Source: a virus
Taxonomy: Duplodnaviria > Heunggongvirae > Uroviricota > Caudoviricetes
Virus record (IMG/VR): IMGVR_UViG_3300008114_000011
DNA length: 25,588 bases
Direction: 5' to 3' (one strand)
In this document: one piece after another, positions 117 to 23,033 of the stretch
Layout of the letters: each line of letters opens with the position of its first letter
How positions within the stretch are numbered: the stretch's first letter is position 1
Notes under the pieces: model-generated
Told to the model about the DNA's origin: nothing
The model's input: only the letters and a program-made list of their open reading frames with translations
Database searches by the model: none
Made by a program: the position numbers and the translations under genes

Positions 117-126
117 TAATATATAA
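117..126 (+). promoter_or_regulatory. TAATATATAA motif, candidate phage late promoter
   Basis: The same motif precedes every leader-bearing unit in the window; here it ends 5 nt before ATG 131. Confidence 0.55.
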
Positions 127-130
127 AATT

Positions 131-1324
131 ATGAAGAATATATTAAACTACAAATATTTCTTATCAGAAAAACTTTTAGTTGAAAGTTTACTTCTTTTAG
201 AGTCAATTGTTGCTTACTCACCTAAGTTTAAAAAGGCTTTACAAAGACTACCTGATAACGAGGTTGCTAAAGCCTTATTAGAAATTGAGAATGAAGACTT
301 AGATGTTGTATCTAACTTCTTTGATATCTTAATTGATAACGATAATGAACTATCATTTACTAACGATAGAACAGCTCAAGCTATTATTAGATTAGACAAA
401 GAGATGGTTAGATGGACTGGTCGTAGAGGTAATTGGTTAACAAATACTGCTGGAAACCTTAATATCTTTAGAAGAATGGGTTATGAACCGGTTGTTGATA
501 CTCCAGTTTATCATCCACAAGCTACTGAATATGGTGAAGTTATATCAAAATGGACTTCTCCAAGAACAAATAAAACTTGGTGTTATGTTAAGTTTGAAAA
601 TGGTGAAGGTGTTTATAGTCAAGAAAGATTGGCTAACGCTCATGAAGAATTAAAAAAGAAAGTCTTCACTTCATCAAGACAAACTATTAGAATTGGTAGA
701 GCAATCAGAGCTCTTTTAAATGCTAAAGGTTTAAGATTTAACGATGCTCAATTAGAAACATTTGTAAATGAGTTTAGAGGTGTTATCGCGGTAATGAATG
801 ATGTTTTCTCAAGATTTGAAATCGTTGATGGTGAAGATCTTCTTTACTGGTATAAAAGAGAAAACTATGAGTTCCCAAATAGAGGAAACTTAGGTGGTTC
901 TTGCCAAGCAGTTGGTAGAAGAGATTGGTTAGAAATCTATATTGATAATCCAGATACAGTTAAACTACTTATTTTAAAATCATTAGATAATCCTGATAAA
1001 ATAATTGGTAGAGCACTTCTTTGGACATTAGATGATGGTGGTGTTTTAATGGATTGTATATATACAAGTGCTGATTCAGATAATGCTGTTTTTAGAGAAT
1101 ATGCTAGATCTAAAGGATGGCATTACATCTATGATGGTGGTAGAACATATGTTGCTCACACTAAAGTTAAACCAGAAGGATACCGTGCTTATCCATCGGT
1201 TGATAACATGAGAAACTGGGATAGAAATACTGGTAAAATTAGTAATAGAAGATTTGAAGGTTCTCGTGAAATCATATGGTCTGCTGATGGTGATGATGAT
1301 GAAGATTGGGATGATGAAGATTAA
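131..1324 (+). CDS. Conserved-type phage hypothetical protein (397 aa) with N-terminal leader MKNILNYKYFLSE and acidic tail
   Basis: Long ORF followed by a terminator. The C-terminal half has GSC..IY.DNP..V.LLI..KIIGRALLW..MD.IY, a pattern I recognise from uncharacterised phage proteins (possibly PcfJ/GNAT-like fold; unverified). Confidence 0.8.
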   Translation: MKNILNYKYFLSEKLLVESLLLLESIVAYSPKFKKALQRLPDNEVAKALLEIENEDLDVVSNFFDILIDNDNELSFTNDRTAQAIIRLDKEMVRWTGRRGNWLTNTAGNLNIFRRMGYEPVVDTPVYHPQATEYGEVISKWTSPRTNKTWCYVKFENGEGVYSQERLANAHEELKKKVFTSSRQTIRIGRAIRALLNAKGLRFNDAQLETFVNEFRGVIAVMNDVFSRFEIVDGEDLLYWYKRENYEFPNRGNLGGSCQAVGRRDWLEIYIDNPDTVKLLILKSLDNPDKIIGRALLWTLDDGGVLMDCIYTSADSDNAVFREYARSKGWHYIYDGGRTYVAHTKVKPEGYRAYPSVDNMRNWDRNTGKISNRRFEGSREIIWSADGDDDEDWDDED

Positions 1325-1325
1325 T

Positions 1326-1354
1326 AAAAAGAGAGTTAAAAGCTCTCTTTTTTT
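1326..1354. terminator. Bidirectional intrinsic terminator
   Basis: AAAAAGAGAG-TTAAAAG-CTCTCTTTTTTT between convergent genes. Confidence 0.8.
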
Positions 1355-1583
1355 ATATCTCTTCAACGATAACCAAATCAGCTTCTCTTCTACTTATTGC
1401 TATAACATTTCCTTGTAGATCACCAGTGAGTATTGCTATTGGTCCGCCAAATGGAGCTTTATAAACAAATTTTACTATTTGATTTGGGAAAATTCCAAAT
1501 TCTATTATGTTTACTTTAAAATTTGAGTCTTCAATATACTTAACTATGTATTTTTTATTTTTTTTAATTGACGTTAATTTCAT
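1353..1583 (-). CDS. feoA: FeoA family SH3-like protein
   Basis: 76 aa; FGIFPNQIV..KAPFGGPIAI..IAISRREADLVIVE matches the FeoA pattern (G..PG..V..APFG.PI..ALR..EA..I.V). Confidence 0.8.
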   Translation of the reverse strand: MKLTSIKKNKKYIVKYIEDSNFKVNIIEFGIFPNQIVKFVYKAPFGGPIAILTGDLQGNVIAISRREADLVIVEEI

Positions 1584-1621
1584 TTTTAATAGGTATATTT
1601 GTAATTAAATATATATTTGAT

Positions 1622-1780
1622 ATGAAAAAGTTTAAAAGGAAAGAAGGTTATATTGGTGGTGTCTGTGAAGGATTAGGAGAATGGTCTGGTGTTGATCCGA
1701 TTATATGGAGAATTGGATTTGTTTTAACTGGGTGGTTTTTCACCTATTGTATATTATGGGCATTTACTGAAAAAGAATAA
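1622..1780 (+). CDS. PspC-domain small membrane protein (52 aa)
   Basis: IGGVCEGLGEWSGVDPIIWRIGFV..YCILW is a PspC signature. Start moved from 1568 to ATG 1622 to avoid overlap with feoA. Confidence 0.8.
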   Translation: MKKFKRKEGYIGGVCEGLGEWSGVDPIIWRIGFVLTGWFFTYCILWAFTEKE

Positions 1781-1809
1781 ACAAATTTGTAGTAGGTCAT
1801 ATAACTAAT

Positions 1810-2427
1810 ATGACTGAAATAATTGAACCAAATCCACTTTTAGTGGAGTACTTTAATAAAGTACAATATTTAAAATCATCAGTAAAAGTTGATTTAGATA
1901 AATTCGACTCAGATGGTGAGTGGCAATATGTTGAATCCAACATAGAAAGAAACATTTTTTTACTAAAACGATTAGAAGAAGCAGGTTTACTTCCAAGTGA
2001 AGTTAATGCTTGTGATTGTGGTGTTGGTTTTGGAACAGTATTATACGATCTTTATTTACAATCAAAAGAATTTAATAATAGACAATTCACATTCACTGGA
2101 ATTGAAAAATGTGATGAGTATGTTAATTCATTAAAAAGTGAATTACTTTCATATTGGGATAACAATTTGAATTTAATTCATGATGATATTATGAGTTATG
2201 ATTATTCTAATACTAATTTTATTTGGTTTTTCACACCATTTAAAATTTCTAATAAGTTAATGAGTTTTTTTGATAAAATAATAACTGAGATACCAGTTGG
2301 TGGGTTTATATTTGGTTTAGATCAATATCGTGTTATGGAGTATGGTAGTCCGGAATTGATTGAAAAGTTTAATGAATTAGAGTTTAATCATATTGATGAT
2401 CTAATTTTTTATAGAAAAACAAAATAA
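1810..2427 (+). CDS. Class I SAM-dependent methyltransferase
   Basis: Motif I ACDCGVGFG, acidic motif II TGIE, HDDI, and post-strand-4 FFTPF (like YxFNPF). Substrate unknown. Confidence 0.75.
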   Translation: MTEIIEPNPLLVEYFNKVQYLKSSVKVDLDKFDSDGEWQYVESNIERNIFLLKRLEEAGLLPSEVNACDCGVGFGTVLYDLYLQSKEFNNRQFTFTGIEKCDEYVNSLKSELLSYWDNNLNLIHDDIMSYDYSNTNFIWFFTPFKISNKLMSFFDKIITEIPVGGFIFGLDQYRVMEYGSPELIEKFNELEFNHIDDLIFYRKTK

Positions 2428-2456
2428 AAAAAACCCTCATTAAGAGGGTTTTTTTT
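2426..2456. terminator. Bidirectional intrinsic terminator
   Basis: A-run-CCCTC-ATTAA-GAGGG-T-run between convergent genes. Confidence 0.8.
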
Positions 2457-2817: not shown

Positions 2818-2953
2818 TGATTCTAAAGGTGATAAACACTATTGTTATAGATGTGCCTGTAAATCTGAGAATTGTACAGAGTGGAGAGAACCGATAACTG
2901 GTTCAGCTATTTGGGTTAATATTGTTAAATGGAAATACGATAAAAATGACTAA
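2816..2953 (+). pseudogene. Headless Cys-rich reading frame (IDSKGDKHYCYRCACKSENCTEWREP..KYDKND)
   Basis: Open frame with CxxC, and its stop overlaps the next ATG (2946). No ATG start found. Confidence 0.3.
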
Positions 2954-3575
2954 ACAAAACTTAATTAGATTTTGGATAAACTACATTAAAAACTTAATCG
3001 CTTTGAATAAAGTTAAGTTTATAATACTAACTGTTGGTATTTTACTTTACTCATTAGGAACTTCAATGGATAAGTCCGTCTGTTTTTATAGAGTAGATAA
3101 ACACTTTATTGATAATGGAATTCATTTTTATGATCTTACTTATTATAAAGATGCTTTAGTTTATGATACTGAACAAAGGCTATTTGAAGATAAAGGAGAG
3201 TTTTTTATAAAGAGTGTTGAATGGAGTGAACTTGGTATAACAACAATGGTATTTGCTTATATTGCTTTTGCTATTGTTTTAATATCTTGCTTTGTTAATG
3301 AAAGTGATATTAATTTAGAACTTAGCCAGGTTCTAAAGGATACTATTTATAATGATTATAAAATCAGTGAAATTGAAGAAGATGGTGATACTAAATATTA
3401 TCACACGTCATACTCTAAAATACTTAGAGTAAAAACAAATAGAAATGGATCATGGGACACATCACACCTTGATAAATTTGTATCAGAAACAACTATGAAG
3501 GAATTCTTCAGTAGAGAAAATTATTATACAAAATCTGAATTAAGAGATATTAAATTAAATAAAATAGGAATATAA
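2946..3575 (+). CDS. Membrane protein with C-terminal tag (ELRDIKLNKIGI)
   Basis: Two hydrophobic segments; tag at the stop. ATG 2946 (MTKQNL) preferred over 2922. Confidence 0.8.
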   Translation: MTKQNLIRFWINYIKNLIALNKVKFIILTVGILLYSLGTSMDKSVCFYRVDKHFIDNGIHFYDLTYYKDALVYDTEQRLFEDKGEFFIKSVEWSELGITTMVFAYIAFAIVLISCFVNESDINLELSQVLKDTIYNDYKISEIEEDGDTKYYHTSYSKILRVKTNRNGSWDTSHLDKFVSETTMKEFFSRENYYTKSELRDIKLNKIGI

Positions 3576-3630
3576 CTCGAAATTAAACATTAGCCTATAT
3601 CTTTTATATAAATTAAAAATATAATTTATT

Positions 3631-3861
3631 ATGGAAAAACACGATTTACACCATGAGTTTGTTGAATATGATGAAAAAATTCATGTTTTAAAAACTACAA
3701 ATAATCATTTTAGAAAATTATTTGACGACTATCACCAAGTAGATAAAGACATTCATAGACTTGAGGCTAATGAAATTTACACTAATGATGAATTAAATTC
3801 TTTAAGAAAAAAGAGATTAAACTTAAAAGATCAATTATTTGGAATGTTAAAAGAGAGTTAA
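3631..3861 (+). CDS. YdcH/DUF465 family protein
   Basis: HDLHHEF.EY..KIH.LK..NNHFRKLFDDYH.VD..I..LE..LRKKRL.LKDQL is a DUF465 pattern, close to the Flavobacterium-type N-terminus MEKHDL.HEF. Confidence 0.8.
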   Translation: MEKHDLHHEFVEYDEKIHVLKTTNNHFRKLFDDYHQVDKDIHRLEANEIYTNDELNSLRKKRLNLKDQLFGMLKES

Positions 3862-3876
3862 AAACTCTCTTTTTTT
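3849..3876 (+). terminator. Intrinsic terminator overlapping the YdcH stop
   Basis: AAAAGAGAGT-TAAAA-ACTCTCTTTTTTT. Confidence 0.75.
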
Positions 3877-3879
3877 ATT

Positions 3880-3889
3880 TTATATATAC
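3880..3889 (+). promoter_or_regulatory. TTATATATAC, variant of the TAATATATA motif
   Basis: One mismatch to the motif; ends 4 nt before ATG 3893. Confidence 0.4.
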
Positions 3890-3892: not shown

Positions 3893-4168
3893 ATGGAAAG
3901 AAAAATAAAACCATATGATGTTCCGGTAGGTGAACCTCTAATACCTAGAAAGAAGAAAATTGCTGATTTGATTGAGAATTCAGATTTACCAGAAGATTTA
4001 TTTAAACCACAAGGTGATAAGTGGACAGCTATACACTTCATTAGAGTGGGTAGTCCATCTGAATATTATTTAAATCAGTGTTTAGATAAATTAAAACAAA
4101 GTGGTATTGATACTTCTTCTGTTTATGAATCAAGAGTATTAAACTTCAAGAATTTTTATTTAAGATAA
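3893..4168 (+). CDS. Hypothetical protein (91 aa)
   Basis: ORF track; follows a terminator and a motif. Confidence 0.75.
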   Translation: MERKIKPYDVPVGEPLIPRKKKIADLIENSDLPEDLFKPQGDKWTAIHFIRVGSPSEYYLNQCLDKLKQSGIDTSSVYESRVLNFKNFYLR

Positions 4169-4379: not shown

Positions 4380-4655
4380 TTATTCATTTTTGTTTTTATC
4401 ATCTTTTCGGTTTTTAACTCTTTCCCAAGTTGTTAGACCTAATAAAGATAATATAGTAGAGAAGTCGATTATTAGTATTTCTGGTAGTAAACCAAAATCA
4501 CCGTTTTTATAACAAGATGATAACCATTTAATGTGAGCAAAGACAACAATAACAGTTATTATGAAAGCTGTCAATTTTCTAGCTGACCAACCTTTTTCAT
4601 TATTGGAAAATGAATTACCGATTTTATCGGCTAAACTTGATAATAATTCTTTCAT
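4380..4655 (-). CDS. Small two-TM membrane protein, holin-like topology
   Basis: Two hydrophobic helices, SARKL before TM1 and a highly charged C-tail. Holin function is inference only. Confidence 0.6.
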   Translation of the reverse strand: MKELLSSLADKIGNSFSNNEKGWSARKLTAFIITVIVVFAHIKWLSSCYKNGDFGLLPEILIIDFSTILSLLGLTTWERVKNRKDDKNKNE

Positions 4656-4658
4656 ATA

Positions 4659-4668
4659 GTATATATTA
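4659..4668 (-). promoter_or_regulatory. TAATATATAC motif
   Basis: GTATATATTA on the + strand; ends 4 nt before ATG 4655. Confidence 0.55.
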
Positions 4669-4671: not shown

Positions 4672-5193
4672 ATGAGAATAACAAATATTTTAATTCAATA
4701 TAAAATTCGATCAGTGAGTAGAGTTTTAGTACTCTTAGCCTCATTTACTCCTATTTTATTTGTTATAAATAATTCAAAAGAATATACTATTACAGTAGTT
4801 ATACTACTCATTCTAATTCTAAGTATCAGAGCAATCTTAGATAAATTATCAATGAGTATTTCAGAAAGTGAAACTAGAGAATACTTGAGAATACCAGATT
4901 ATGATGATGAAATATACATGGTCGAAAATATACCATATAAAACATTAGATTTGTTACTAATTAGTTCGATGTATTATAGTGGTACTCAAAATTTTAAAAA
5001 TAAAATTAAAGATAAAAGTTATAAAATTTATAATATCAAGAAAGGTATGAATGATGAATTTTACTATGTAACTTTAAGTGATAAAGATGATCATCTTGGT
5101 ATGTTATTTAACATAAATTGGTTAAAGTACGGAAAATATTTTTATACAAAAAGACAACTAAGAGACGATAAATTAAAAGAATTAGGTATATGA
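4672..5193 (+). CDS. Two-TM membrane protein with C-terminal tag (QLRDDKLKELGI)
   Basis: ORF track; N-terminal hydrophobic helices; tag at the stop. Confidence 0.8.
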   Translation: MRITNILIQYKIRSVSRVLVLLASFTPILFVINNSKEYTITVVILLILILSIRAILDKLSMSISESETREYLRIPDYDDEIYMVENIPYKTLDLLLISSMYYSGTQNFKNKIKDKSYKIYNIKKGMNDEFYYVTLSDKDDHLGMLFNINWLKYGKYFYTKRQLRDDKLKELGI

Positions 5194-5450
5194 GCAATTC
5201 AATGAAAATGACTAGAAATACGGATAAAGTGGAAGATGTAATTTGTCTCAAAACAAAATCTATATTACATGTTGATTGGGGAAATTTCGAAGTTGAAGAA
5301 GGTAAATCCTATAAGAGATTAGTAGAAAAAGATAATTCATCTGATTATTCGTATATTAGATTTGTTTGGTGTTACATGCCTTTTCCTAAAGAAGACTTTG
5401 TTACTTTAAGTGAAATGAGAGATAAAAAAATAACAGGATTAGGTATATGA
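5190..5450 (+). CDS. Small SH3-like beta protein with tag (EMRDKKITGLGI)
   Basis: VICLKT..VEEGKSYK..FVTLSEMRD; ATGA overlap with the previous gene. Confidence 0.75.
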   Translation: MSNSMKMTRNTDKVEDVICLKTKSILHVDWGNFEVEEGKSYKRLVEKDNSSDYSYIRFVWCYMPFPKEDFVTLSEMRDKKITGLGI

Positions 5451-5905
5451 ACTTAAAAATATTATTAAACGAGTGGGTTAACATAATTGATAGGATCAAA
5501 CAAGTTGAGGACTATAAAGTCATCGAAATGAACGATGAAACTATCAAAGTAAATTTTAATTTCAGAAGTAGTTTATTTAGTAAAGAAGAATATAAAAATA
5601 CCGAAAAAGAAATTAAAGATTACTTAGTAAATAACTCAATGTTTCATAAAGATTTTGATATGAAATCTTATTTACCAATGAGAGTGAATGAAATTGAAAA
5701 GACTTTTATTGAAATATTTGGTGGAATAAAGTATATTGATAAATATAGTACAATTTATTTTAATCGAGGTAATTTATCCTACCCATCTCTTCACACCGAA
5801 GAAGAATACATAGTTTATCAAGGTAGTAGATTTATTGTTCAATTTAAACCAGATAGATTTAAACAATATTTAAGAGATAAGAGGTTAAACGAAATAGGAA
5901 TATAA
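5447..5905 (+). CDS. Hypothetical protein with tag (YLRDKRLNEIGI)
   Basis: ORF track; ATGA overlap. Confidence 0.8.
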   Translation: MNLKILLNEWVNIIDRIKQVEDYKVIEMNDETIKVNFNFRSSLFSKEEYKNTEKEIKDYLVNNSMFHKDFDMKSYLPMRVNEIEKTFIEIFGGIKYIDKYSTIYFNRGNLSYPSLHTEEEYIVYQGSRFIVQFKPDRFKQYLRDKRLNEIGI

Positions 5906-6267
5906 TGGATTACAAAGGAAACTTATACACATGGAATGTAACAGACCACTACGGTTGGGAAGTTAGTTTACAAGATTTAAGAGATATTAGATTAAGTAAA
6001 CTCTTAAATGAAAAGTCTGAACAAGATGATAGATTTTTATATAATATTGGATTACACGATAAAGATAATTCAAGAGAAATGGCGACAGCAACATTTTATC
6101 CGAAAGATAAGATATTTATGATAAATTCATTTGATCCATACGAAACCAACAAAAGTGGAATTTTAGTAAGGTTCAAAGCAGAAAACATACAACAATGTGA
6201 GAATATATTACAATTCATTTTAGAACCAAACAACTTAGAAGTATTTAATAAATATAAAATTCGATGA
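5905..6267 (+). CDS. Hypothetical protein with an internal tag copy (DLRDIRLSKLLNE)
   Basis: ORF track; TAATG overlap. Confidence 0.75.
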   Translation: MDYKGNLYTWNVTDHYGWEVSLQDLRDIRLSKLLNEKSEQDDRFLYNIGLHDKDNSREMATATFYPKDKIFMINSFDPYETNKSGILVRFKAENIQQCENILQFILEPNNLEVFNKYKIR

Positions 6268-6497
6268 ATATAGAATTAACAAATGAAACCATAGAGAAGA
6301 TAGAAAAACTTTCTAACTTAGGCGATATAGCAAAAGATTGTATAATAAAAGATATAAGTGAAATTGTTGCTAGATATGTTTGGGAATATAATACACAACA
6401 AACAAGAGATCAAATGAACAACGATATTAATGAATATTTAGATAAATGTTTGATGCCATTTATTAGAGAAGAAAGATTAAAAGAATTAGGATTATGA
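6264..6497 (+). CDS. Hypothetical protein with tag (FIREERLKELGL)
   Basis: ORF track; ATGA overlap. Confidence 0.8.
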   Translation: MNIELTNETIEKIEKLSNLGDIAKDCIIKDISEIVARYVWEYNTQQTRDQMNNDINEYLDKCLMPFIREERLKELGL

Positions 6498-6652
6498 GCG
6501 AATTTGATAAAATCTACGAAGTCATAAAAGATAATAAGGTTGGATTTAGACAAGAAATTAACATCAACAATGATAAATATCTTGTTTTTATCAGACCGGA
6601 TGTTGAAAATGGAGGAACAGAAGTTGTTTTTAGACAACTATTGAAAGAATAA
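6494..6652 (+). CDS. Hypothetical protein (52 aa, MSEFDKIYEVIKDNKVG..FRQLLKE)
   Basis: Manual translation; ATGA overlap; ends at a terminator. Confidence 0.7.
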   Translation: MSEFDKIYEVIKDNKVGFRQEININNDKYLVFIRPDVENGGTEVVFRQLLKE

Positions 6653-6682
6653 AAAAAGGGATTGTTTTCACAATCCCTTTTT
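6653..6682. terminator. Bidirectional intrinsic terminator
   Basis: AAAAAGGGATTG-TTTTCA-CAATCCCTTTTT between convergent genes. Confidence 0.85.
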
Positions 6683-6686
6683 CTTT

Positions 6687-6863
6687 TTAGTTATTATCTA
6701 ACACTTTATCAATATTAGCTTCTCTAACTTTAGCTTTGATCCAAGAAGGTTCATTTTCTAATTGATCTTCTGTGATACCTAATTGTTTCATAAATACTTC
6801 TAATAAGTATTCTTTGTTTTCCCATCTGTAAGATGGTCTTTCCATCATTGGTCCGTCTTCCAT
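6687..6863 (-). CDS. Hypothetical protein (58 aa) with tag variant (KVREANIDKVLDNN)
   Basis: Manual translation MEDGPMMERPSYRWENKEYLLEVFMKQLGITEDQLENEPSWIKAKVREANIDKVLDNN; ends at a terminator. Confidence 0.75.
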   Translation of the reverse strand: MEDGPMMERPSYRWENKEYLLEVFMKQLGITEDQLENEPSWIKAKVREANIDKVLDNN

Positions 6864-6911: not shown

Positions 6912-6919
6912 TATCTTTG
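6912..6919 (+). promoter_or_regulatory. -7 box TATCTTTG
   Basis: Matches TAnnTTTG; followed by an A-rich leader and ATG 6933. Confidence 0.7.
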
Positions 6920-7360: not shown

Positions 7361-7368
7361 TATATTTG
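7361..7368 (+). promoter_or_regulatory. -7 box TATATTTG
   Basis: Matches TAnnTTTG; ATG 6 nt downstream. Confidence 0.65.
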
Positions 7369-7373: not shown

Positions 7374-7613
7374 ATGGATTTGAAAAAAACACTTGAAGAG
7401 TTATACCCTGATAGTAAATTGAACGTTAAATCAGTTGAAAGTGGAGACTTTATAAAGGTTGTCGCGGATGGGAAAACTCGTTATTATTTAATTGATAATG
7501 ATAGTTTATATACTTTTGAACCACCAGCTGTTTATTTTCGAAGTGGATCAATACACTATCGAAAGTTCAAATCGTTATTTAGAGAATTAGTATTAAATAA
7601 ACTAGGAATATGA
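7374..7613 (+). CDS. Hypothetical protein with tag (LFRELVLNKLGI)
   Basis: ORF track. Confidence 0.8.
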   Translation: MDLKKTLEELYPDSKLNVKSVESGDFIKVVADGKTRYYLIDNDSLYTFEPPAVYFRSGSIHYRKFKSLFRELVLNKLGI

Positions 7614-8128: not shown

Positions 8129-8129
8129 A

Positions 8130-14478: not shown

Positions 14479-14498
14479 ATTTTTATTATATTTACAAT

Positions 14499-14882: not shown

Positions 14883-14892
14883 AATAAATAAT

Positions 14893-15123: not shown

Positions 15124-15272
15124 AACTATTTACAAAATTAAGAAGAGTGAATATCTATGGTGACATGACCATGGATTCAAACGGTGAAGGGTCAGCACCA
15201 TTAGTTGCTACTGTTATACAAGGTAAATTCTTAGGATTATTCTGGGTCTATTTAAAAACTATTGCCCACTAA
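15120..15272 (+). CDS. Hypothetical protein (50 aa, MKLFTKLRRVNIYG..GKFLGLFWVYLKTIAH)
   Basis: Manual translation; ATGA overlap. Confidence 0.65.
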   Translation: MKLFTKLRRVNIYGDMTMDSNGEGSAPLVATVIQGKFLGLFWVYLKTIAH

Positions 15273-15289
15273 GATAAAAGATTGATAAT

Positions 15290-15544
15290 ATGAAATGGGG
15301 TCTAAAATCCGTAAATGAACGAAGTGAACGTAAGCCAGTTGATGGTGAAGTTGTTATATCTATAACTAATAATTGTAGATTAACAAAAGGTAAAAAATAT
15401 ACCTTATCTTACAGCAGTCTTTTTTGGTCAGTTAAAAATGATTATGGTCATATGATATGTGATATGTCATTATTTGTTTACGAATCTGATTGGTTGGCAC
15501 TTCAAAGAGATCTTAAACTTAGAAAATTAGGTATAAACAAATAA
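15290..15544 (+). CDS. Small SH3-like protein with tag (QRDLKLRKLGINK)
   Basis: LTKGKKYTL..VKNDYG. Confidence 0.8.
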   Translation: MKWGLKSVNERSERKPVDGEVVISITNNCRLTKGKKYTLSYSSLFWSVKNDYGHMICDMSLFVYESDWLALQRDLKLRKLGINK

Positions 15545-15578
15545 TCTAATTTTTAGTATAAAAAATAAAAAAAATAAT

Positions 15579-15953
15579 ATGTTTAGAACTTTAAGATATT
15601 TAATAAAATTAACTTTAGTTATAGCGGTTTTTGTTGCTTTATATGAACTAGCAACCGATAAAAAAGATCCTAAAGACCAATGGTATAGAGATGATTGCTA
15701 TTCAATTGAGTATAGATTATATCCAACGGATAATGGGAAATGGGAAACTGAAATATTAAATGGATATAATAAAGACATAATTGTTTTTTATGAAGTTAAA
15801 GTTGATACTATATCAAAGTTAAATATAGTTGAAATAAAATCTGGTAAAACAACCGGTGTTAAATCACTTAAACTAAAAGAAGGAGAAGCTAAAATTGATA
15901 TAAGTTTTGTACTTAGATCCGATAATGGAAAAAGAGTACCATGTGGAATTTAA
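15579..15953 (+). CDS. N-terminally anchored or secreted beta-rich protein
   Basis: Basic N-terminus followed by the hydrophobic stretch LIKLTLVIAVFVALY. Confidence 0.75.
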   Translation: MFRTLRYLIKLTLVIAVFVALYELATDKKDPKDQWYRDDCYSIEYRLYPTDNGKWETEILNGYNKDIIVFYEVKVDTISKLNIVEIKSGKTTGVKSLKLKEGEAKIDISFVLRSDNGKRVPCGI

Positions 15954-15954
15954 T

Positions 15955-16250
15955 ATGAGATATAAAGATAACAGAGGATTTGAACTGAAATTCTTTTCAA
16001 AAGAAAAAAGAGAATTTAGTACCGGAAAGGAATTTCTATTATATAACATTAGAACTGGTGATGTTTTTTCAAAATAACAATCTCAAAAGATGGTGAGTTA
16101 GTTGAAGCATTACCATTCTTTGAAGATATAAAAGATGAACTTTATAAACTAACCATGAATTATTTTATAGATGAAGAATCATACACTTATGATAAATGGA
16201 TACTTCCTCTATTAAGAAATAATCGAATAAAAGAATTAGGAATAACTTAA
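15955..16250 (+). pseudogene. Frameshifted tagged gene (about 98 aa if joined; ends LRNNRIKELGIT)
   Basis: The frame from ATG 15955 stops at 16075-16077. The -1 frame, open from 16062, ends in the tag. The junction is the T6 run at 16064-16069. Confidence 0.65.
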
Positions 16251-16297
16251 AACCAAAACATATTTCACCTCTTCCTTTATCGGTTATCCCAAACTAT

Positions 16298-16456
16298 ATG
16301 GGTATAAACTTAGTTAGTGTCGAGAGTATAACTTGGACACAAAGAGAAGATAATCAATTAATAGATCTTAAAATAAATTTCATTCCAGAGAAATCTAAAG
16401 AAGAGATATTAGCAGAAGATAGAGATTTAAGAATTGATAACCTTTTAAATAAGTAA
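16298..16456 (+). CDS. Small protein with tag (EDRDLRIDNLLNK)
   Basis: Manual translation MGINLVSVESITWTQRED..; the frame stays open upstream to 16223, so the start is uncertain. Confidence 0.65.
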   Translation: MGINLVSVESITWTQREDNQLIDLKINFIPEKSKEEILAEDRDLRIDNLLNK

Positions 16457-16474: not shown

Positions 16475-17143
16475 TTATTTTAATTCACCAACATTAAGTT
16501 CAAACTTTTTAAATAAAGGATCTATTTCAATTAACCATGATTTAAGTATATCAAATTTAATTTTTGAATCAACACATAAAAAAATGTTACAAACTATATT
16601 TTCTAGATAAACAGTAGATTTATAATGACTACCAATCTCACCATTTGAAAAACTTGCTCTACGTGGATCTAATGACTCTAAACCATCCGAATTAACATAT
16701 TTATTCCACTCTACTAACTTCTTGTCCTTATACAAATAATAATTAAAAATTTTCTTACCAACAACATATCTATTATTAAATGGTTTTTCTTTACTAACCA
16801 ATTCTAAACTACTAATCCAATCTAATAATTCTATTAGAGTGTTTTTTAAATCACCAAACTTAGAGAATATTATTAAATCACTCAATACTCCAGATAAATG
16901 AAAATGATAACCAACCTCTAAAGCCATTCTCCTATGAGATTCATAAAAGTCCCAGTAATCATTTTTACTTCTTATTTGTCTAGTATCATCAACCTTCCAA
17001 ATATAAATACCACCATCACAAAAAACTTCAACCAATTCAAAAGTAGTATTACCATCTTCACAGAAGTGAATAACAATATCTTCCAACTCACCTTCTATCA
17101 TATCAAGTGACTCGTTGAATAATTTCCAATTTTTAATCCTCAT
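16475..17143 (-). CDS. Leader-bearing hypothetical protein (MRIKNWKLFNESL, 222 aa)
   Basis: Start moved to ATG 17143 because it gives the same leader as its neighbours. Confidence 0.8.
   Translation of the reverse strand: MRIKNWKLFNESLDMIEGELEDIVIHFCEDGNTTFELVEVFCDGGIYIWKVDDTRQIRSKNDYWDFYESHRRMALEVGYHFHLSGVLSDLIIFSKFGDLKNTLIELLDWISSLELVSKEKPFNNRYVVGKKIFNYYLYKDKKLVEWNKYVNSDGLESLDPRRASFSNGEIGSHYKSTVYLENIVCNIFLCVDSKIKFDILKSWLIEIDPLFKKFELNVGELK
17108..17143 (-). repeat. 36-nt exact repeat copy 1 (encodes MRIKNWKLFNES)
   Basis: Identical to 17583-17618; a diverged third copy is at about 18123-18162. Confidence 0.9.
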
Positions 17144-17162
17144 GTTACAATATATTTTTTTA

Positions 17163-17618
17163 TCAACGTTCAACAGAGTAGAAATTTTCATCTTTATTTA
17201 CAATATAGCCATTTTCAGAAAGTTTATTCCATAATCTATTTGAGTTTCTATTTCGCTCATTATTATATGAGTAGATTTTTTTTATATCATCCTCATTGAA
17301 AACAATATTAATACTTTTTTTAAATAAATCAAACCCCAAGTTTTTACCCCTATACTTATCAATGAGTTTATACGATATTATCCTATAAATACCTTCACCT
17401 GTCTCCATAACCTCATCAAAATATTCGTTTCCCTCAATCTTAAACTCCCAAATAATATCATCATTATAAATAAATTTTAAATCTATTGATTTATTATTTT
17501 TTTGACGACCATATGTTTTAATAACTTCTATATTGTTTAGTATTTCATGTTTCATAAACTTATCTTCCATACTCGATTCAACTGACTCGTTGAATAATTT
17601 CCAATTTTTAATCCTCAT
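17163..17618 (-). CDS. Leader-bearing GNAT-family acetyltransferase-like protein
   Basis: LIDKYRGKNLG (acetyl-CoA motif A) and RNRNSNRLWNKL (motif B-like). Confidence 0.75.
   Translation of the reverse strand: MRIKNWKLFNESVESSMEDKFMKHEILNNIEVIKTYGRQKNNKSIDLKFIYNDDIIWEFKIEGNEYFDEVMETGEGIYRIISYKLIDKYRGKNLGFDLFKKSINIVFNEDDIKKIYSYNNERNRNSNRLWNKLSENGYIVNKDENFYSVER
17583..17618 (-). repeat. 36-nt exact repeat copy 2 (encodes MRIKNWKLFNES)
   Basis: tgactcgttgaataatttccaatttttaatcctcat, identical to 17108-17143. Confidence 0.9.
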
Positions 17619-18162
17619 AATAAATGTTAGTTATTTTAGTAATATTATAAGTCCTTTCTAACCACTTTTTTAAAATATCGTCTAATAAGTTAGCATCATC
17701 TATAAAAACATGTGGTACATAAGATATATCACTTTCCATAAATATATTGTTATAAAGTAATTCATAATTCGGATTAAAAGTTTTATTAACTGTAAATGAA
17801 ATTACATACTCATTTTCCTTATAGTAGTGGTCTTCACCTTTTGATATAACTTTAATTTTAAGATTATTATAATTCTCATCTAACCAATTTAAAACAGCTT
17901 CTTCTCTACTCCCTTTATAGAAAATAAGAAACTCTTTCTTATTTATAACATTCCAATCTTCTTCATTAGCTAGTCTTTCAATTCTTTCAAAATCAGCTTT
18001 TGAAAATCCATAACCAGATATACGATACACAAGTAAATTAGTTGAGTTAGGATAATAATCATAAGGAACTATATTATCATAATCAACTAAAAACCATTTT
18101 ACATCCTCTAAACTTTCTTCAACTGACTCGTTGAATAACTTCCAACTCTTAATCTTTTTCAT
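17608..18162 (-). CDS. Leader-bearing hypothetical protein (MKKIKSWKLFNESV)
   Basis: ORF track; first gene of the minus-strand triplet. Confidence 0.8.
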   Translation of the reverse strand: MKKIKSWKLFNESVEESLEDVKWFLVDYDNIVPYDYYPNSTNLLVYRISGYGFSKADFERIERLANEEDWNVINKKEFLIFYKGSREEAVLNWLDENYNNLKIKVISKGEDHYYKENEYVISFTVNKTFNPNYELLYNNIFMESDISYVPHVFIDDANLLDDILKKWLERTYNITKITNIYYED

Positions 18163-18191: not shown

Positions 18192-18201
18192 GTATATATT
18201 A
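18192..18201 (-). promoter_or_regulatory. TAATATATAC motif
   Basis: GTATATATTA on the + strand, 30 nt upstream of ATG 18162. Confidence 0.55.
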
Positions 18202-18212
18202 AAAATATTTAT

Positions 18213-18220
18213 TATATTTG
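18213..18220 (+). promoter_or_regulatory. -7 box TATATTTG driving the tRNA-like elements and downstream tagged genes
   Basis: Matches TAnnTTTG. Confidence 0.65.
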
Positions 18221-18253: not shown

Positions 18254-18334
18254 AGTCAGGTGGGCTAATGGGAAGTCATCGTGGATTAAGTTCCTTATAG
18301 CGTTATGATACAGGTTCGAATCCTGTCCTGACTA
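18254..18334 (+). tRNA. Atypical or degenerate tRNA, possibly Leu(UAA)-derived
   Basis: Acceptor AGTCAGG/CCTGACT, D-stem GGCT/AGTC, T-arm ACAGG-TTCGAAT-CCTGT, discriminator A. TAA at 18287-18289 sits in a poorly paired anticodon stem. Long variable region; no encoded CCA. Confidence 0.55.
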
Positions 18335-18388
18335 CTTCTGATTGGTTACTACTAAACAACGAGCATCGACGAAGAAAGGAAGTAGGTT

Positions 18389-18468
18389 GGTCAAGTAATG
18401 CGTAATGAGAAAGTGGTATCTCACCCTTAATGGTCGCATCGTCATAGGTTCGAATCCTATCTTGACCA
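18389..18468 (+). ncRNA. tRNA-like RNA with acceptor and T arms but no anticodon arm
   Basis: GGTCAAG/CTTGACC, ATAGG-TTCGAAT-CCTAT. ATGCG/CGCAT encloses the hairpin TGAGA-AAGTGGTA-TCTCA and TAATGGT. Confidence 0.6.
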
Positions 18469-18470: not shown

Positions 18471-18716
18471 ATGAATGAGTATAGAGATTTTATTAAGGAG
18501 TTAGAAAAACTTACAGTTTTACGTAAGTTAGATAACTATTTTTTTATATCTAAAATAAAAAAAGAACTAAATTACAAATATGTATTGGATGAAGATCTAA
18601 TATTAGAAGACTTTATGGAAATATGTCATAAGTATATAGATGATTTAGGTGAAAATGATAAAAACTTAATACTACCTTTACTTAGAGACTTTAAACTAAA
18701 AATGTTAAACATATGA
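18471..18716 (+). CDS. Hypothetical protein with tag (LLRDFKLKMLNI)
   Basis: Start moved to ATG 18471; the 18405 start lies inside the tRNA-like element. Confidence 0.75.
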   Translation: MNEYRDFIKELEKLTVLRKLDNYFFISKIKKELNYKYVLDEDLILEDFMEICHKYIDDLGENDKNLILPLLRDFKLKMLNI

Positions 18717-19045
18717 GAAAAGAATATCAATACAATCCGATGTTCTCAAAAGAAACAAATGATAATCTTAAAATATATCACGGAATATATGAAGATTGTA
18801 GTGAGATATTAGGTGCTGAAAAACATTTAGAACCATTCACTGGTAAAAGATCAGGATCACCAAGTGATGAAACAATGGTTAAATATAACGAATATTTAAA
18901 AGGTTATCTAAATGAAACTGATCGTGGTATTCTAAGAACTTTACTTGTGGTTGGAAAACCATATAAAAATCATCCTATTGTTAGTGAAACAATGGAGACT
19001 TTAGCAAATGAATTAAGAAGAACATCAAAAACAGGGAGAATATGA
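18713..19045 (+). CDS. Hypothetical protein
   Basis: ORF track; ATGA overlap. Confidence 0.8.
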   Translation: MRKEYQYNPMFSKETNDNLKIYHGIYEDCSEILGAEKHLEPFTGKRSGSPSDETMVKYNEYLKGYLNETDRGILRTLLVVGKPYKNHPIVSETMETLANELRRTSKTGRI

Positions 19046-19344
19046 TAACAACCGAATTTTTCGTTTACACAGACGACACTAACATTATAGATTCAATTGG
19101 TGAAAAAATAATGGAACGATTTCTATCTGATTATCCAGATTCAATTATAACATTTGATTATGATATAGATGAAGAACTACATAATGTCAAAATAGAAACT
19201 AATGAATTAACTAACATAGAGGATATCGATACTTTCTTATGTGAAGAAATATGTCAAGAGTTTGAATACTATTGTACTATATCAGATGGTGATAAATCAA
19301 AGTCTTATTACTTTGATGAAGATGATGAATGGTCATATAAATAA
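19042..19344 (+). CDS. Highly acidic hypothetical protein
   Basis: ORF track; D/E-rich throughout. Confidence 0.8.
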   Translation: MITTEFFVYTDDTNIIDSIGEKIMERFLSDYPDSIITFDYDIDEELHNVKIETNELTNIEDIDTFLCEEICQEFEYYCTISDGDKSKSYYFDEDDEWSYK

Positions 19345-19350
19345 AATATT

Positions 19351-19623
19351 ATGTTTGTAGTTAAAAGAACAGGTGGTTCGTGGGATGATTTTTATACAGA
19401 ATCCCTATTTGTAACCGGATCAGAAGAATTCGCTAAAAAGTATTGTGATAAAGCTAATGAATTCAATAAAAGACTAAAAAAGAGGTTTGGTGAAATTGAT
19501 AGTGAGTTAGAAGATATTGATGATACTGATGTTAGAAGAAATCTACTTTTAGAATGGTGGAGTAAGTATCATACTTTAAGTGATGTGAATGCTTACTCAT
19601 ATGAAGAAATTGAAGTTAGATGA
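19351..19623 (+). CDS. Hypothetical protein
   Basis: ORF track; GGSWDDFY..LFV..A.KY pattern. Confidence 0.8.
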   Translation: MFVVKRTGGSWDDFYTESLFVTGSEEFAKKYCDKANEFNKRLKKRFGEIDSELEDIDDTDVRRNLLLEWWSKYHTLSDVNAYSYEEIEVR

Positions 19624-19880
19624 TTAGACTGAATAAAGGAACCATTCTTGTTTGGAAGGAGAAGGTGGATGGATATAATTGTTTACCTGGTGCTAAAGCC
19701 ATAGTTACTGATGAAGATATAATTTTAGCAGGAAGTTACTGGAAGTCGTCGTCTCATATGGTATCAATTGAATTCATTGATGATCTTAGCAGAGGTCAAG
19801 CTAAAGGTAAATATTTCATACACAACTTTATAACGGTTGATGAATGGAGAGAAAAAAGACTTGATGAATTAGGAGTATGA
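19620..19880 (+). CDS. Small SH3-like protein with tag (EWREKRLDELGV)
   Basis: ORF track; FITVDEWRE. Confidence 0.8.
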   Translation: MIRLNKGTILVWKEKVDGYNCLPGAKAIVTDEDIILAGSYWKSSSHMVSIEFIDDLSRGQAKGKYFIHNFITVDEWREKRLDELGV

Positions 19881-20137
19881 AATTAGTTTGTGTAAATGAT
19901 AAAATCTTGAGAAGAGATAGTATGGGAAATGAGTATCTTAAAAAAGACGACTTCTTAGAAGTTGGTAAAGTTTATGATTTACCTTACTATGAATTAGATA
20001 GATACTTATCATCAAGTTATATTAGATTTTGGTTTGATGATAAAACTGAATATGGTTCTCATAGTTTAATTTTTTCTAAAGAAAACTTTGTGACTTTAGA
20101 AGAATGGAGAGAAATGCAATTAAATAAGATTTTATAA
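19877..20137 (+). CDS. Small SH3-like protein with tag (EWREMQLNKIL)
   Basis: MKLVCVND..LEVGKVYDL..FVTLEEWRE. Confidence 0.8.
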   Translation: MKLVCVNDKILRRDSMGNEYLKKDDFLEVGKVYDLPYYELDRYLSSSYIRFWFDDKTEYGSHSLIFSKENFVTLEEWREMQLNKIL

Positions 20138-20541
20138 TGAGTAGAATATATGAACATGTTATAACAACAAATTGTTGTGATGAATCTAAAAAACATAAAG
20201 TTGTAAAACTTCAATTTAATTTTGAAGATTCGTATTCAATTGATCTACCATCCACAAAAAAACCTAAATGGTTATCATTTGGTTTTAGAGATTTTTCTTG
20301 GGGAAAACATGAAAGTTATATAGAAGTTAATTTTTGTCCTTTCTGTGGTGAAAAAGTTCCAGAGATAGAGATAAATGAGAAAGCTCTTAAATACATGATA
20401 AATGATGGTGATGGTAATTATTGTGGAACGTGTGGTGAGAGAGAAATGTGTTGTGAATGTTTACCTCCATACTTTAGATGGAAACCAGTAGGTGTGAAAG
20501 TAAAACTTCCAAATGATAAGAAAATAAAAAAAGAAGAGTAA
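20137..20541 (+). CDS. Cys-rich putative zinc-binding protein
   Basis: CC, FCPFCG, CGTC and CCEC motifs. Confidence 0.75.
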   Translation: MSRIYEHVITTNCCDESKKHKVVKLQFNFEDSYSIDLPSTKKPKWLSFGFRDFSWGKHESYIEVNFCPFCGEKVPEIEINEKALKYMINDGDGNYCGTCGEREMCCECLPPYFRWKPVGVKVKLPNDKKIKKEE

Positions 20542-20547
20542 GAGTTA

Positions 20548-20754
20548 ATGAGACCTTGTATGTGTAGTACACCGAGAAGACACCCTGAGATTAAGGGATA
20601 TATTTTGATTGCTGATTATCCAGGTAATAGAAGAAAACTTGGAGAATTTGAACCATATACAAGTGGTGAGTTTTCTAAATATCCACACATTTGGAAACCT
20701 GTTTATCACACAGATGTGATTAGAGATAAGAAATTAACTGAATTGGGAATATAA
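20548..20754 (+). CDS. Small protein with tag (VIRDKKLTELGI)
   Basis: ORF track. Confidence 0.75.
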   Translation: MRPCMCSTPRRHPEIKGYILIADYPGNRRKLGEFEPYTSGEFSKYPHIWKPVYHTDVIRDKKLTELGI

Positions 20755-20933
20755 TGAGTGGAAGTTGGTCATATAAATCACCAAATTGTTTTAAATGTGA
20801 TGAGGTGATAACTGGTGAAGATATTTATACTATACCCGCTAAAATTAATGGTCTTAAAACAGAAATAAATGTTACGATTTGTAAGAAATGTTATAGAGAT
20901 TGGAAATTAAAACAAATTGGAATTAATGCTTAA
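20754..20933 (+). CDS. Small CxxC...CxxC zinc-finger protein with tag (CYRDWKLKQIGINA), 59 aa
   Basis: Manual translation MSGSWSYKSPNCFKCDEVITGEDIYTIPAKINGLKTEINVTICKKCYRDWKLKQIGINA; TAATG overlap. Confidence 0.75.
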   Translation: MSGSWSYKSPNCFKCDEVITGEDIYTIPAKINGLKTEINVTICKKCYRDWKLKQIGINA

Positions 20934-21543
20934 ACAATTTTTAGATAATCATAATAACAGTGGTGGTTTTTGTGAGTTAAACTCTAAGTTTAATAACTTA
21001 TCAATACATAGTAATATCTTAAAAATAGAGTTTAAAAAACTTTATACCCATCTTATTATACAGTTTTATGACGAAGGGTTAATAACAGGTGATGATAAAT
21101 CAAATATAAAGATAGATGATTTAAAAGAACTACTTAAAAGGAATAACCATTCAGATTATGAAAATCTAATATTAAATAGTTGGTTTGGTAAGTTAGAATT
21201 TAAAAACTCAGTTAGAATTAGTGGATATATGTATTCTATAATGGAATATTACTTTAATAAATATATTGATACTGTTCTTTATATTGATACAGATTCTATC
21301 TATGTTACTGAGATACAAGATGAAGATTTCATTAAAAGTATTGGAGTACCATATGAGATACATCAAATAAATCAAATCTACTTTATTTCTAAGAAAAGAC
21401 TCTATATAGAAATTAATAATGAGATAGTTAAACGTACCGTATCAAACAAAGTTTGGGAATCAACTAAAGATGTTTATCATAATATGGAAGCAATAATGAA
21501 ATCTAACATAAGAGAAAGAAAACTAAAAGAATTGGGTTTATAA
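20926..21543 (+). CDS. Miniature degenerate family-B DNA polymerase palm-like protein with tag (IRERKLKELGL)
   Basis: IEFKKLYTHLII (motif A-like), LILNSWFG (motif B-like), YIDTDSIYV (motif C) and SKKR. ATG 20926 preferred. Confidence 0.7.
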   Translation: MLKQFLDNHNNSGGFCELNSKFNNLSIHSNILKIEFKKLYTHLIIQFYDEGLITGDDKSNIKIDDLKELLKRNNHSDYENLILNSWFGKLEFKNSVRISGYMYSIMEYYFNKYIDTVLYIDTDSIYVTEIQDEDFIKSIGVPYEIHQINQIYFISKKRLYIEINNEIVKRTVSNKVWESTKDVYHNMEAIMKSNIRERKLKELGL

Positions 21544-21553: not shown

Positions 21554-21561
21554 TATATTTG
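21554..21561 (+). promoter_or_regulatory. -7 box TATATTTG
   Basis: Matches TAnnTTTG; ATG 6 nt downstream. Confidence 0.6.
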
Positions 21562-21752: not shown

Positions 21753-21843
21753 GAAGAAATCAGAAAGAGCTGAGTATTTTACAATTGGCTTGATTTTAGG
21801 AGTAGGTATAATGGGAATAATAGCAATCTTATTAATAAGTTAA
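21745..21843 (+). CDS. Single-TM micropeptide (32 aa, MAKKKSERAEYFTIGLILGVGIMGIIAILLIS)
   Basis: Manual translation; overlaps the previous stop and fills the gap. Confidence 0.6.
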   Translation: MAKKKSERAEYFTIGLILGVGIMGIIAILLIS

Positions 21844-21847
21844 CTTT

Positions 21848-22060
21848 ATGAAAGATAAATATACAACATACGATAAGTATGGTAAATACTCTTTTGACGA
21901 TGAAGATGGGTATATGACATATGATGGTAAATACCTTTCAAAATATTATGACGCTAAAATATGGTATGAATCAAAACCATCAGAATCAGAGGAAGAAAGA
22001 TTGGCAAGAGAAAAAGCTGAAGCTCGCGATAAAAAACTTAGTGAGTTACTAGGAGAATGA
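21848..22060 (+). CDS. Tyr/Asp-rich small protein with tag (ARDKKLSELLGE)
   Basis: ORF track; internal YDKYGKY / YDGKY repeat. Confidence 0.75.
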   Translation: MKDKYTTYDKYGKYSFDDEDGYMTYDGKYLSKYYDAKIWYESKPSESEEERLAREKAEARDKKLSELLGE

Positions 22061-22332
22061 AGATATTAAGAAGATTAGATATTTCGGAATTACACACTGG
22101 CATGATTGTAGCAAGTGAACAAAATGATGATCATCTATATGAATTAGATTTAAATGAATATCCTAAAATAAAATATAGATCTGTTGCTAAAATAGTAGAT
22201 GGTGAGTTTAAAAAACACAATAGTGATTTTTGGCATAAAACAATTTTTACTGGTTGGGTTGAAACTGAAGAATCTCGAAAAATAAACCCTCAAACAAAAA
22301 GAGAAGATAGACTAAAAGAATTAGGACTATGA
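22057..22332 (+). CDS. Small protein with tag (TKREDRLKELGL)
   Basis: ORF track; ATGA overlap. Confidence 0.8.
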   Translation: MKILRRLDISELHTGMIVASEQNDDHLYELDLNEYPKIKYRSVAKIVDGEFKKHNSDFWHKTIFTGWVETEESRKINPQTKREDRLKELGL

Positions 22333-22583
22333 GAATATCAATTGCTACCAAGATAATTAATGAAATGACTTCTATGACATCAGGATCATTCTATTTATAT
22401 TGCGTAGTAAGTGATATTAAGAAGGAAGTCTATGGATTATATTCTGATAATGATGAAATAGAAACTGAAGAGTTTATTAGTATATGTGAATCATATTTAT
22501 CGGAATATATAAAGAGTGGTGCTTCAGATTTAAGAGATCAATCTATTATAAGAGATATAAGATTATATCTACTCTTTATCTAA
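22329..22583 (+). CDS. Hypothetical protein with a truncated tag (IIRDIRL)
   Basis: ORF track; the last 15 nt overlap the convergent gene. Confidence 0.7.
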   Translation: MRISIATKIINEMTSMTSGSFYLYCVVSDIKKEVYGLYSDNDEIETEEFISICESYLSEYIKSGASDLRDQSIIRDIRLYLLFI

Positions 22584-23000
22584 TTTAATTATAACATTTG
22601 TATTCCCGATCAAAGATCTTTGAGTAGTTATATTATTAGGGTCTATATAATCTAAGTGTTCTTTTAAGAGATTAATATATCTCTCAATGGCTTCTTTACC
22701 ACTATCAGTTAAAGTCCTTTGGAATGTTTTAGGATCAGTAATTGTTCTTCCAATTATTTTTACAACCACCATATCTATATTTACTGATTTAGTATTAAAA
22801 ACATGACTATTAATGATTTTATTATATTCATCAACCTCAAAAGAATTACCAGATTTAGTAGCAAATGTATATCTTAATTCAAAACCTTCTTCTTCTAAAA
22901 GATATGAAATGGTTTTAATATCATCTACTATCTCATTAGCCTTATTATTATTTTCCGTTATAGGGTCATTAAAATCTTCAAATATCTTTAAATATTTCAT
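22569..23000 (-). CDS. Leader-bearing hypothetical protein (MKYLKIFEDF)
   Basis: ORF track; TAATATATAC upstream. Confidence 0.8.
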   Translation of the reverse strand: MKYLKIFEDFNDPITENNNKANEIVDDIKTISYLLEEEGFELRYTFATKSGNSFEVDEYNKIINSHVFNTKSVNIDMVVVKIIGRTITDPKTFQRTLTDSGKEAIERYINLLKEHLDYIDPNNITTQRSLIGNTNVIIKLDKE

Positions 23001-23004
23001 ATTT

Positions 23005-23014
23005 GTATATATTA
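23005..23014 (-). promoter_or_regulatory. TAATATATAC motif
   Basis: GTATATATTA on the + strand; ends 5 nt before ATG 23000. Confidence 0.55.
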
Positions 23015-23025
23015 AAAAAGAATAT

Positions 23026-23033
23026 TATTTTTG
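23026..23033 (+). promoter_or_regulatory. -7 box TATTTTTG
   Basis: Matches TAnnTTTG; heads tagged genes. Confidence 0.55.

Follow-up and report, generated by a model that had tools for sequence, protein, structure and literature searches.

Why should two short peptide signals, each carried by several proteins of one phage, never meet on the same protein? The question is raised by a 25,588-nt stretch of DNA (the window), part of a 77-kb virus contig of 28% GC (IMG/VR record IMGVR_UViG_3300008114_000011), in which six proteins begin with a leader peptide, 32 end in a C-terminal tag and none has both; a preliminary description had noted this absence of doubles. That description tied the leader to one promoter motif, TAATATATA(A/C), and the tag to another, TAnnTTT(G/A), and proposed a late phage-sigma regulon of virion cargo beside an early host-polymerase regulon of tagged proteins. 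The phage belongs to a T4-related megaphage clade whose complete relatives measure 635-642 kb. In these relatives the co-segregation of leader, tag and promoter is real and clade-wide. The likely answer is a three-step transcription programme combined with two exclusive labels, in a T4-related megaphage of a Bacteroidota host.

Labels and promoters across the clade

The leader-bearing 397-aa protein at 131-1324 has relatives of 65-69% identity in IMG/VR fragments and others in three complete, unannotated genomes: LR745206.1 (W01, 635 kb, 42% identity), LR756502.1 (W02, 642 kb) and LR756501.1 (W03, 735 kb). W01-W03 encode a gp23 capsid protein, an S77 prohead protease and a T4-like portal, sheath and terminase. 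Genome-wide tests covered these three, G001-G004 (G004 being incomplete), part of W05 and the cultured phage Atu_ph07. Matrices for the leader (two) and the tag were trained on W01, with a decoy false-positive rate below 0.1% for the leader, and the promoter class of a gene is that of the promoter heading its inferred operon. De novo k-mer discovery in W01 and W02 gave TAATATATA (motif A) and TATATTTGTA as the two dominant upstream words. Both promoter motifs are strand-specific (195 vs 36; 53 vs 3).

Among 3,965 pooled genes, 527 encode leader proteins and 559 tagged ones; a single protein has both labels where 76.2 would be expected. Many such doubles would have spoken against the preliminary description, by its own account, and they are not found. 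W01 has 142 leader proteins, 155 tagged proteins and no double (23.1 expected, p 2e-12); W02 has 168, 156 and none (26.9 expected, p 1e-14). With the W01-trained matrices the exclusion is replicated in G004 (1 vs 13.6 expected) and G003 (0 vs 4.6). The one doubly labelled protein, from G004, is without motif A, and its leader may be spurious. Roughly one protein in four bears one or other of the two labels.

In the proposed contingency test of peptide signal against promoter class, leader genes are distributed A413/B6/C3, where B is the TAnnTTTG box and C a third class described later in the text; 413 of the 422 assigned lie in TAATATATA units. For tagged genes the figures are A11/B188/C56, with 11 of 255 in such units. 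Counting each homologue family once, the counts by promoter class are 248:4 for leaders and 4:166 for tags, and no family holds both labels or switches from one to the other. One NUDIX family switches, with one exception, between leader plus A and no leader plus B.

Among non-leader genes the tag rate is 1.6% in A units, 25% in B units and 15% in C units, and the exclusion of leader and tag arises largely because the tag avoids late (A) genes in general. A rate of 25% in TAnnTTTG units means that the tag is not a label of that whole regulon. The 56 tagged genes under the third promoter show that the tag marks non-late rather than only early proteins. A picture of two regulons does not suffice: promoters of a third class, of extracytoplasmic function (ECF) type, stand before genes for replication and metabolism and before roughly one in five of the tagged genes that could be assigned. 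The 'early label' is better read as a 'non-late label', and the model needs this third promoter class; to call the tag an 'address label' is to go a step further, to what it may do.

The probable late promoter, the leader and the other promoter classes

Motif A is a single short TATA-like element with no -35 partner, and its spacing is taken from the distance to the ATG: 299 of 640 sites (47%) lie at -12 to -14, and 45% beyond -22. The T4 late promoter element, TATAAATA, occupies -13 to -6 (PMC1524935), and the equal spacing of A sites from the ATG suggests leaderless mRNA. In W01, W02 and G000-G004, 38-47% of A and B promoters stand at leaderless spacing, with a gap between zero and about 10-nt leaders. 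Structural genes follow the motif in the relatives, as the preliminary description had thought worth checking: motif A or a TATATATA-type variant precedes the portal (5/5), the sheath (3/3), gp15, gp5 and the W01 protease-capsid unit. Of the genes whose Atu_ph07 homologue was detected in virions by mass spectrometry (MS), 9/21 lie in A units vs 1/26 (p 0.003).

The search for a gp55-like sigma factor was also rewarded in the relatives. A 121-aa candidate late sigma matches the late-sigma family phrog_234 (E 2.4e-7), and its top structural match is T4 gp55 (7d7c_F, TM 0.72, E 0.018). It is about 80-99% identical among the best 120 of 367 matches; homologues are annotated as late sigma, and sigma homologues occur in the Lak, pT24 and MA9V phages. 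In the 77-kb fragment no copy of the candidate turned up. As in T4, a short AT-rich element stands before head and tail genes and the factor is a minimal one with sigma region 2 only. The differences are the consensus, here TAATATATA, the scattering of late units on both strands, and what appears from the alignment to be the lack of a T4-type clamp-binding tail. By analogy, motif A would be read by this phage sigma, late in infection.

Motif A could instead be an AT-rich signal for translation or processing, with the leader no more than a well-translated N-terminus. The genome is about 72% AT and the 47% of sites at fixed distance from the ATG would suit such a signal. The 45% of sites beyond -22 would not, and neither would the T4-late-like spacing, the conserved gp55-like sigma and the virion-protein homologues; the downstream operon genes at 16475 and 17163 keep the leader without the motif. 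We regard this explanation as very improbable.

The leader resembles the capsid targeting sequence (CTS) of T4 internal proteins IPI, IPII and IPIII, MKTYQEFIAE, in which targeting uses residues 4 and 7 (PMC9026906, PMC3012670). [FLIY]-x-E falls within residues 5-18 in 84% of leaders but 28% of other proteins. There are two spacing variants, both ending in a hydrophobic-x-Glu site with the i, i+3 pair kept. Shared with T4 are a length of about ten N-terminal residues, a hydrophobic or aromatic i, i+3 pair, a Glu cut site, attachment to unrelated cargo proteins and a gp21-type protease in the genome. T4 has 3-4 such proteins whereas about 140-170 occur per genome here; F-x-E replaces L/I-x-E, the spacing has two forms and packaging is predicted. 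The prohead protease matches PF03420 (E 5e-7 to 1e-4, short of the curated threshold). Protease and scaffold are apparently fused in a protein of 700-730 aa (L014:8546-10669 in W01, with orthologues) containing 9-10 YSEY[LI]AE repeats. In general form these are Y-x-E-Y-[LIV]-A-E, close to T4 YQEFIAE, and the resemblance of repeat to leader suggests that the leader mimics the scaffold.

What bears on packaging comes from Atu_ph07. Window gene 10106-11008 matches its gp53-56, gp58 and gp59 (E 5e-10 to 5e-16), all of which were detected in virions by MS (PMC6102473, Table S5) and all of which begin with a leader of their own. Across that phage, CTS-like starts mark virion proteins in 21/24 cases vs 119/829 (p 1e-14), and in 11/14 when the genes that suggested the pattern are left out (p 2e-7). 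These homologues and the analogous Atu_ph07 leader suggest that the leader cargo of this clade may be carried inside the virion. The predicted cargo includes NUDIX, Acb1-like, RNA-ligase and peptidoglycan enzymes. The late-sigma regulon of virion cargo proposed earlier is well supported, if indirectly, by motif, sigma, leader and homologues together.

Motif B matches TAHHTTTG, the -7 element of Bacteroidota sigma-A promoters, which comprise -33 TTTG and -7 TAnnTTTG, with T-12, A-11 and G-5 in the -7 box (PMC6847099). The phage box is the same, has no G at the two variable positions and has a TTG element about 20 nt upstream: over 188 B sites, -24 to -22 is T-rich and G reaches 0.35 and 0.34 at -21 and -20 against a background of about 0.08. 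Box and upstream element support the suggested host-polymerase promoter for tagged genes. Sigma-70 consensus promoters are at chance (137 vs 138). The phage sites differ from the host's in that 103 of 272 (38%) are leaderless, whereas in F. johnsoniae 87% of transcripts have leaders longer than 10 nt (PMC6847099). Motif B is called early because only the host sigma is needed. The motif, together with the sigma homologues known from the Lak, pT24 and MA9V phages, hints at a Bacteroidota host.

Operon heads without A or B show AAAC and ATATA at a spacing of 19-20 (57 vs 2.3 expected), giving the class C consensus AAAC-N15-17-ATATA. Class C heads the gp46 and gp47 nucleases, a DnaK-like gene, ClpC, replication and metabolism genes and the 56 tagged genes; three sites lie in the window (1609-1635, 1777-1804 and 3583-3611). 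W01-W03 encode a sigma-70-family factor of ECF type, regions 2 and 4 being seen in W01, and this factor probably serves the AAAC/ATATA promoter. The Rak2-like jumbo phages CBB and GAP32 likewise have three promoter classes (PMC5259590): host-type early promoters on small open reading frames, a TGAAACG/TATA class on DNA-synthesis genes and ATAAATA on structural genes, with a gp55-like and a second sigma. Their host sigma box differs, and no class-linked peptide labels were found in PMC5259590.

The C-terminal tag and its possible reader

The tag is a ten-residue C-terminal helix, R-[DEN]-x-K-[LI]-x-x-[LI]-[LG], borne by 7-16% of genes and by 36% in this fragment. It is selected as protein: near gene ends it occurs in frame 332 times and out of frame three times, and its codons show a synonymous spread much like that of the genome, with all six Arg codons in use. 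No family in Pfam, PHROG or Atlas corresponds to it, and a literature search of incomplete coverage found nothing relevant on the tag, on megaphage internal proteins or on phage ClpCP. The tag is missing from W03, which does have leaders and motif A. A variant with other residues and the same helical pattern occurs on 95 W05 proteins, none with a leader. The DNA pattern for the tag overlooked this variant, so its lack of matches in Lak, pT24, MA9V-1, W06 and W09 is no proof that they have no tag. In W03 (loci L081-L120), 42 unrelated proteins, leader and non-leader alike, end in D-P-Y-G-E-E-[DN]-W, and the acidic, Trp-containing tail of window protein 131-1324 is similar.

Short portable terminal motifs on unrelated proteins are familiar as C-terminal docking or degron peptides, such as ssrA, the SspB tail, the MinD membrane helix and the PIP box. 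The tag differs in having no sequence match to these, in its variable last residues and in marking about 150 proteins per genome. A few tagged proteins are shortened copies of other phage proteins. Window protein 20926-21543 resembles a family-B polymerase palm (TM 0.67-0.73); it keeps DTDS and NSxxG, has Glu for Asp in polymerase motif A, and has relatives in W01 and W02. Another tagged protein, of about 245 aa, is a homologue of the C-terminal portion of the major capsid protein; its gene belongs to a class C unit and follows the capsid gene at a distance of a few genes (L014:17176-17907 in W01; orthologues in W02, G001 and G002). A 66-aa tagged protein near 460435 in W01 (L027) is nearly identical to the repeat region of the protease-scaffold.

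Could the tag instead have arisen from the DNA, as an A-rich junction for translational coupling or recombination before the next start codon, its early link reflecting compact early arrays? About half of the tagged genes overlap or touch the gene that follows and many end in GGAATATGA, but the frame and codon evidence and the W05 variant argue otherwise. In W01, 40% of tagged genes have a gap above 20 nt or a convergent neighbour, and coupling is almost as common among untagged genes of B units (40% vs 51%). This idea is largely refuted and its probability is slight. A generic amphipathic helix that anchors early host-takeover proteins in the membrane is improbable, if less so; terminal position, a net charge of about +1 and hydrophobic i, i+3, i+4 spacing fit it, but the mean hydrophobic moment is below that of shuffles (0.24 vs 0.37) and an Arg conserved to 98% points to specific recognition.

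A possible but doubtful reader of the tag is the phage's own ClpC, which lacks the N domain, acting with ClpP either to remove early and middle proteins before the late phase or to receive host targets from tagged adaptors. This refines the two-label model and does not oppose it. All five large tag-bearing genomes encode N-less ClpC under a class C promoter and 1-3 ClpP-family genes, whereas W03, which lacks the tag, encodes a ClpA-type enzyme but no ClpP; tags flank 20/34 N-less but 4/42 full-length phage ClpC loci. Six tagged proteins copy the ClpC UVR tip, and others are the cut-down capsid, scaffold and polymerase copies. Our doubt arises because the evidence is clade-level co-occurrence, which lies wholly within one clade and could go back to a single event. 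The 0-5 variable residues after the motif and 50 internal copies are unlike ssrA-type degrons, mini-copies account for about 6/426 tagged families only, and N-less ClpC is also found at loci with no tag nearby. A complex prediction of phage ClpC with tag peptide scored 0.00, which is no answer and counts neither way. N-less phage ClpC with a UVR middle domain and a class C promoter is widespread (L025:13224-15329, L246:4643-6775, L292-L351).

Two other ideas were set aside. A UVR-like reading of the tag was off by one residue. PrkA-YeaH-YcgB, present in W01, W02 and W05, was dropped as reader because it is absent from tag-rich (incomplete) G004, where the flanks of the W01 operon are syntenic. 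The operon (L028:10112-14920 in W01) lies at differing genome positions, with PrkA 67-84% identical.

In the two-label model, host RNA polymerase would run all three steps. Host sigma-A would read TAnnTTTG early, the phage ECF-type sigma AAAC-N15-17-ATATA at the middle stage (replication and metabolism) and the gp55-like sigma TAATATATA late. The T4-CTS-like peptide that begins about 15% of genes would bind the assembling prohead core, hence late expression; a gp21-type protease would cut it after Glu and the protein would ride in the head. Tagged proteins, early or middle, would act in the infected cell, the helix docking on one common partner. The labels would be mutually exclusive as belonging to different time classes and destinations.

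What is observed in this model comprises the motifs, their co-segregation with the labels, the sigma factors, the protease, selection on the tag as protein and the virion status of homologues; we infer the timing, the pairing of sigma with motif, packaging and cleavage in this phage, and the tag's role as a docking handle. Several points weigh against the model. Virion homologues in Atu_ph07 exist for part of the megaphage leader families, not for all (4/15 hits). T4 internal-protein genes have no TATAAATA within 45 nt, so that late-only expression is not a T4 rule. The 77-kb fragment has no capsid, protease or sigma gene; those come from relatives (42-69% identity in the 397-aa protein). Gene and operon calls are from our own script, about half of the tagged genes are left without an assigned promoter, and some sites may be misclassed because motifs A and C share ATATA. 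The 50 internal tag-like copies belong here too.

The window, and the possible meaning of the two labels

The coordinates cited in the preliminary description are all correct. The window holds exactly five copies of TAATATATA(A/C), all sense-oriented, where 1.65 are expected (3/100 shuffles); as stated earlier, they precede the four leader units and gene 4380-4655, and a one-mismatch copy lies at 3880-3889. The 'holin-like' label of 4380-4655 has no Pfam or PHROG support. The nine TAnnTTT(G/A) boxes said to head tagged runs fare less evenly: eight score 6.8-16.4 with the trained matrix and 8679, at 1.2, is doubtful; five of the nine are followed first by a gene without the tag, and the one at 18213 stands before two tRNA-like genes. 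Boxes of equal quality also precede untagged genes (1594, 2683 on the minus strand and 25169), the tagged genes at 2946-3575 and 4672-6497 have no box, and the bare pattern is at chance (157 vs 140 expected). The features are as follows.

117-126, +, motif A (late-type promoter, TAATATATAA); core begins 13 nt ahead of ATG, as T4 late spacing; probably leaderless mRNA
131-1324, +, leader-bearing 397-aa protein of a multi-copy megaphage family; acidic Trp-containing tail
1594-1601, +, motif B box not described before; heads untagged PspC-domain gene 1622-1780
1609-1635, -, class C (ECF-type) promoter ahead of FeoA-domain gene 1353-1583
1777-1804, +, class C promoter (AAAC..ATATA) ahead of 1810-2427
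2676-2683, -, motif B box ahead of untagged gene 2455-2655
2946-3575, +, C-tagged protein; no promoter assigned
3583-3611, +, class C promoter ahead of DUF465 gene 3631-3861
3880-3889, +, motif A with one mismatch, ahead of unlabelled gene 3893-4168
4380-4655, -, small hydrophobic protein under motif A; putative holin
4659-4668, -, motif A ahead of 4380-4655
4672-6497, +, run with four C-tagged genes and one internal tag copy (5905-6267); weak class C-like site only, 4631-4659
6687-6863, -, C-tagged gene
6912-6919, +, motif B (host sigma-A -7 box), score 8.3; first gene untagged
7361-7368, +, motif B, score 16.4; 13 nt ahead of ATG
7374-10076, +, run with five C-tagged genes
8679-8686, +, doubtful motif B box; poor match, score 1.2
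10093-10102, +, motif A, 12 nt ahead of ATG
10106-11008, +, 300-aa protein with the leader (phrog_12810); its Atu_ph07 homologues are virion proteins
11023-11030, +, motif B, score 13.3
11054-11939, +, three consecutive C-tagged genes
11944-11951, +, motif B, score 14.5; first gene untagged
12984-16456, +, mixed run with five C-tagged genes
14487-14494, +, motif B variant (TTTA), score 7.5
16475-18162, -, three-gene operon, each gene with the leader: 17608-18162, 17163-17618 (weakly GNAT-like) and 16475-17143
18192-18201, -, motif A heading that operon; back to back with B box 18213
18213-18220, +, motif B, score 16.4; followed by two tRNA-like genes and a run with tagged genes
18254-18468, +, two tRNA-like genes (18254-18335, 18389-18468); ARAGORN could not assign the first anticodon (taag) and missed the second
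18471-21543, +, run with six C-tagged genes, ending in 20926-21543, a palm-like domain of family-B polymerase type that stands alone
21554-21561, +, motif B, score 16.3; 13 nt ahead of ATG; first gene untagged
21848-22583, +, three C-tagged genes
22569-23000, -, leader-bearing 143-aa protein
23005-23014, -, motif A, 13 nt ahead of ATG; back to back with B box 23026
23026-23033, +, motif B variant, score 6.8
23057-23529, +, two C-tagged genes
24395-25158, +, two C-tagged genes
25169-25176, +, motif B not described before, score 18.0; first gene untagged

At 18192-18220 and 23005-23033 motifs A and B stand back to back within about 30 bp, driving divergent units predicted to be late and early. 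Bidirectional terminator-like hairpins separate the window's units (17 vs 3.8 expected; e.g. 2422-2460, 6651-6684, 1326-1352 and 3849-3873), those at 1326 and 3849 being near-identical. Small host-like genes, besides those for FeoA, PspC and DUF465, encode an Xre/MbcA antitoxin domain (8692-8883) and a nucleoside deoxyribosyltransferase-like protein (13719-14228).

Promoter logic and leader follow known T4-type biology with variations; what would strike a specialist as new is how widely the proteins are labelled, and the C-terminal tag. Most megaphage genes are unannotated, and here about half of a 640-kb genome can be assigned to predicted time classes, and about 30% of it to two destination classes, from four short signals in the sequence alone. 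The predicted injected payload is about 150 different proteins (T4 has 3-4), and a second class, undescribed before, is defined by about 150 non-late proteins with one common handle. A fuller two-address system, in which late proteins go to the capsid and about 150 early and middle proteins share a docking helix for N-less ClpCP, as timed self-destruction or as bait-plus-handle adaptors, is unlikely, slightly more so than the ClpC reader itself. If it were true, such adaptors, some of them copying phage capsid, scaffold or polymerase, would deliver host defence proteins to proteolysis.

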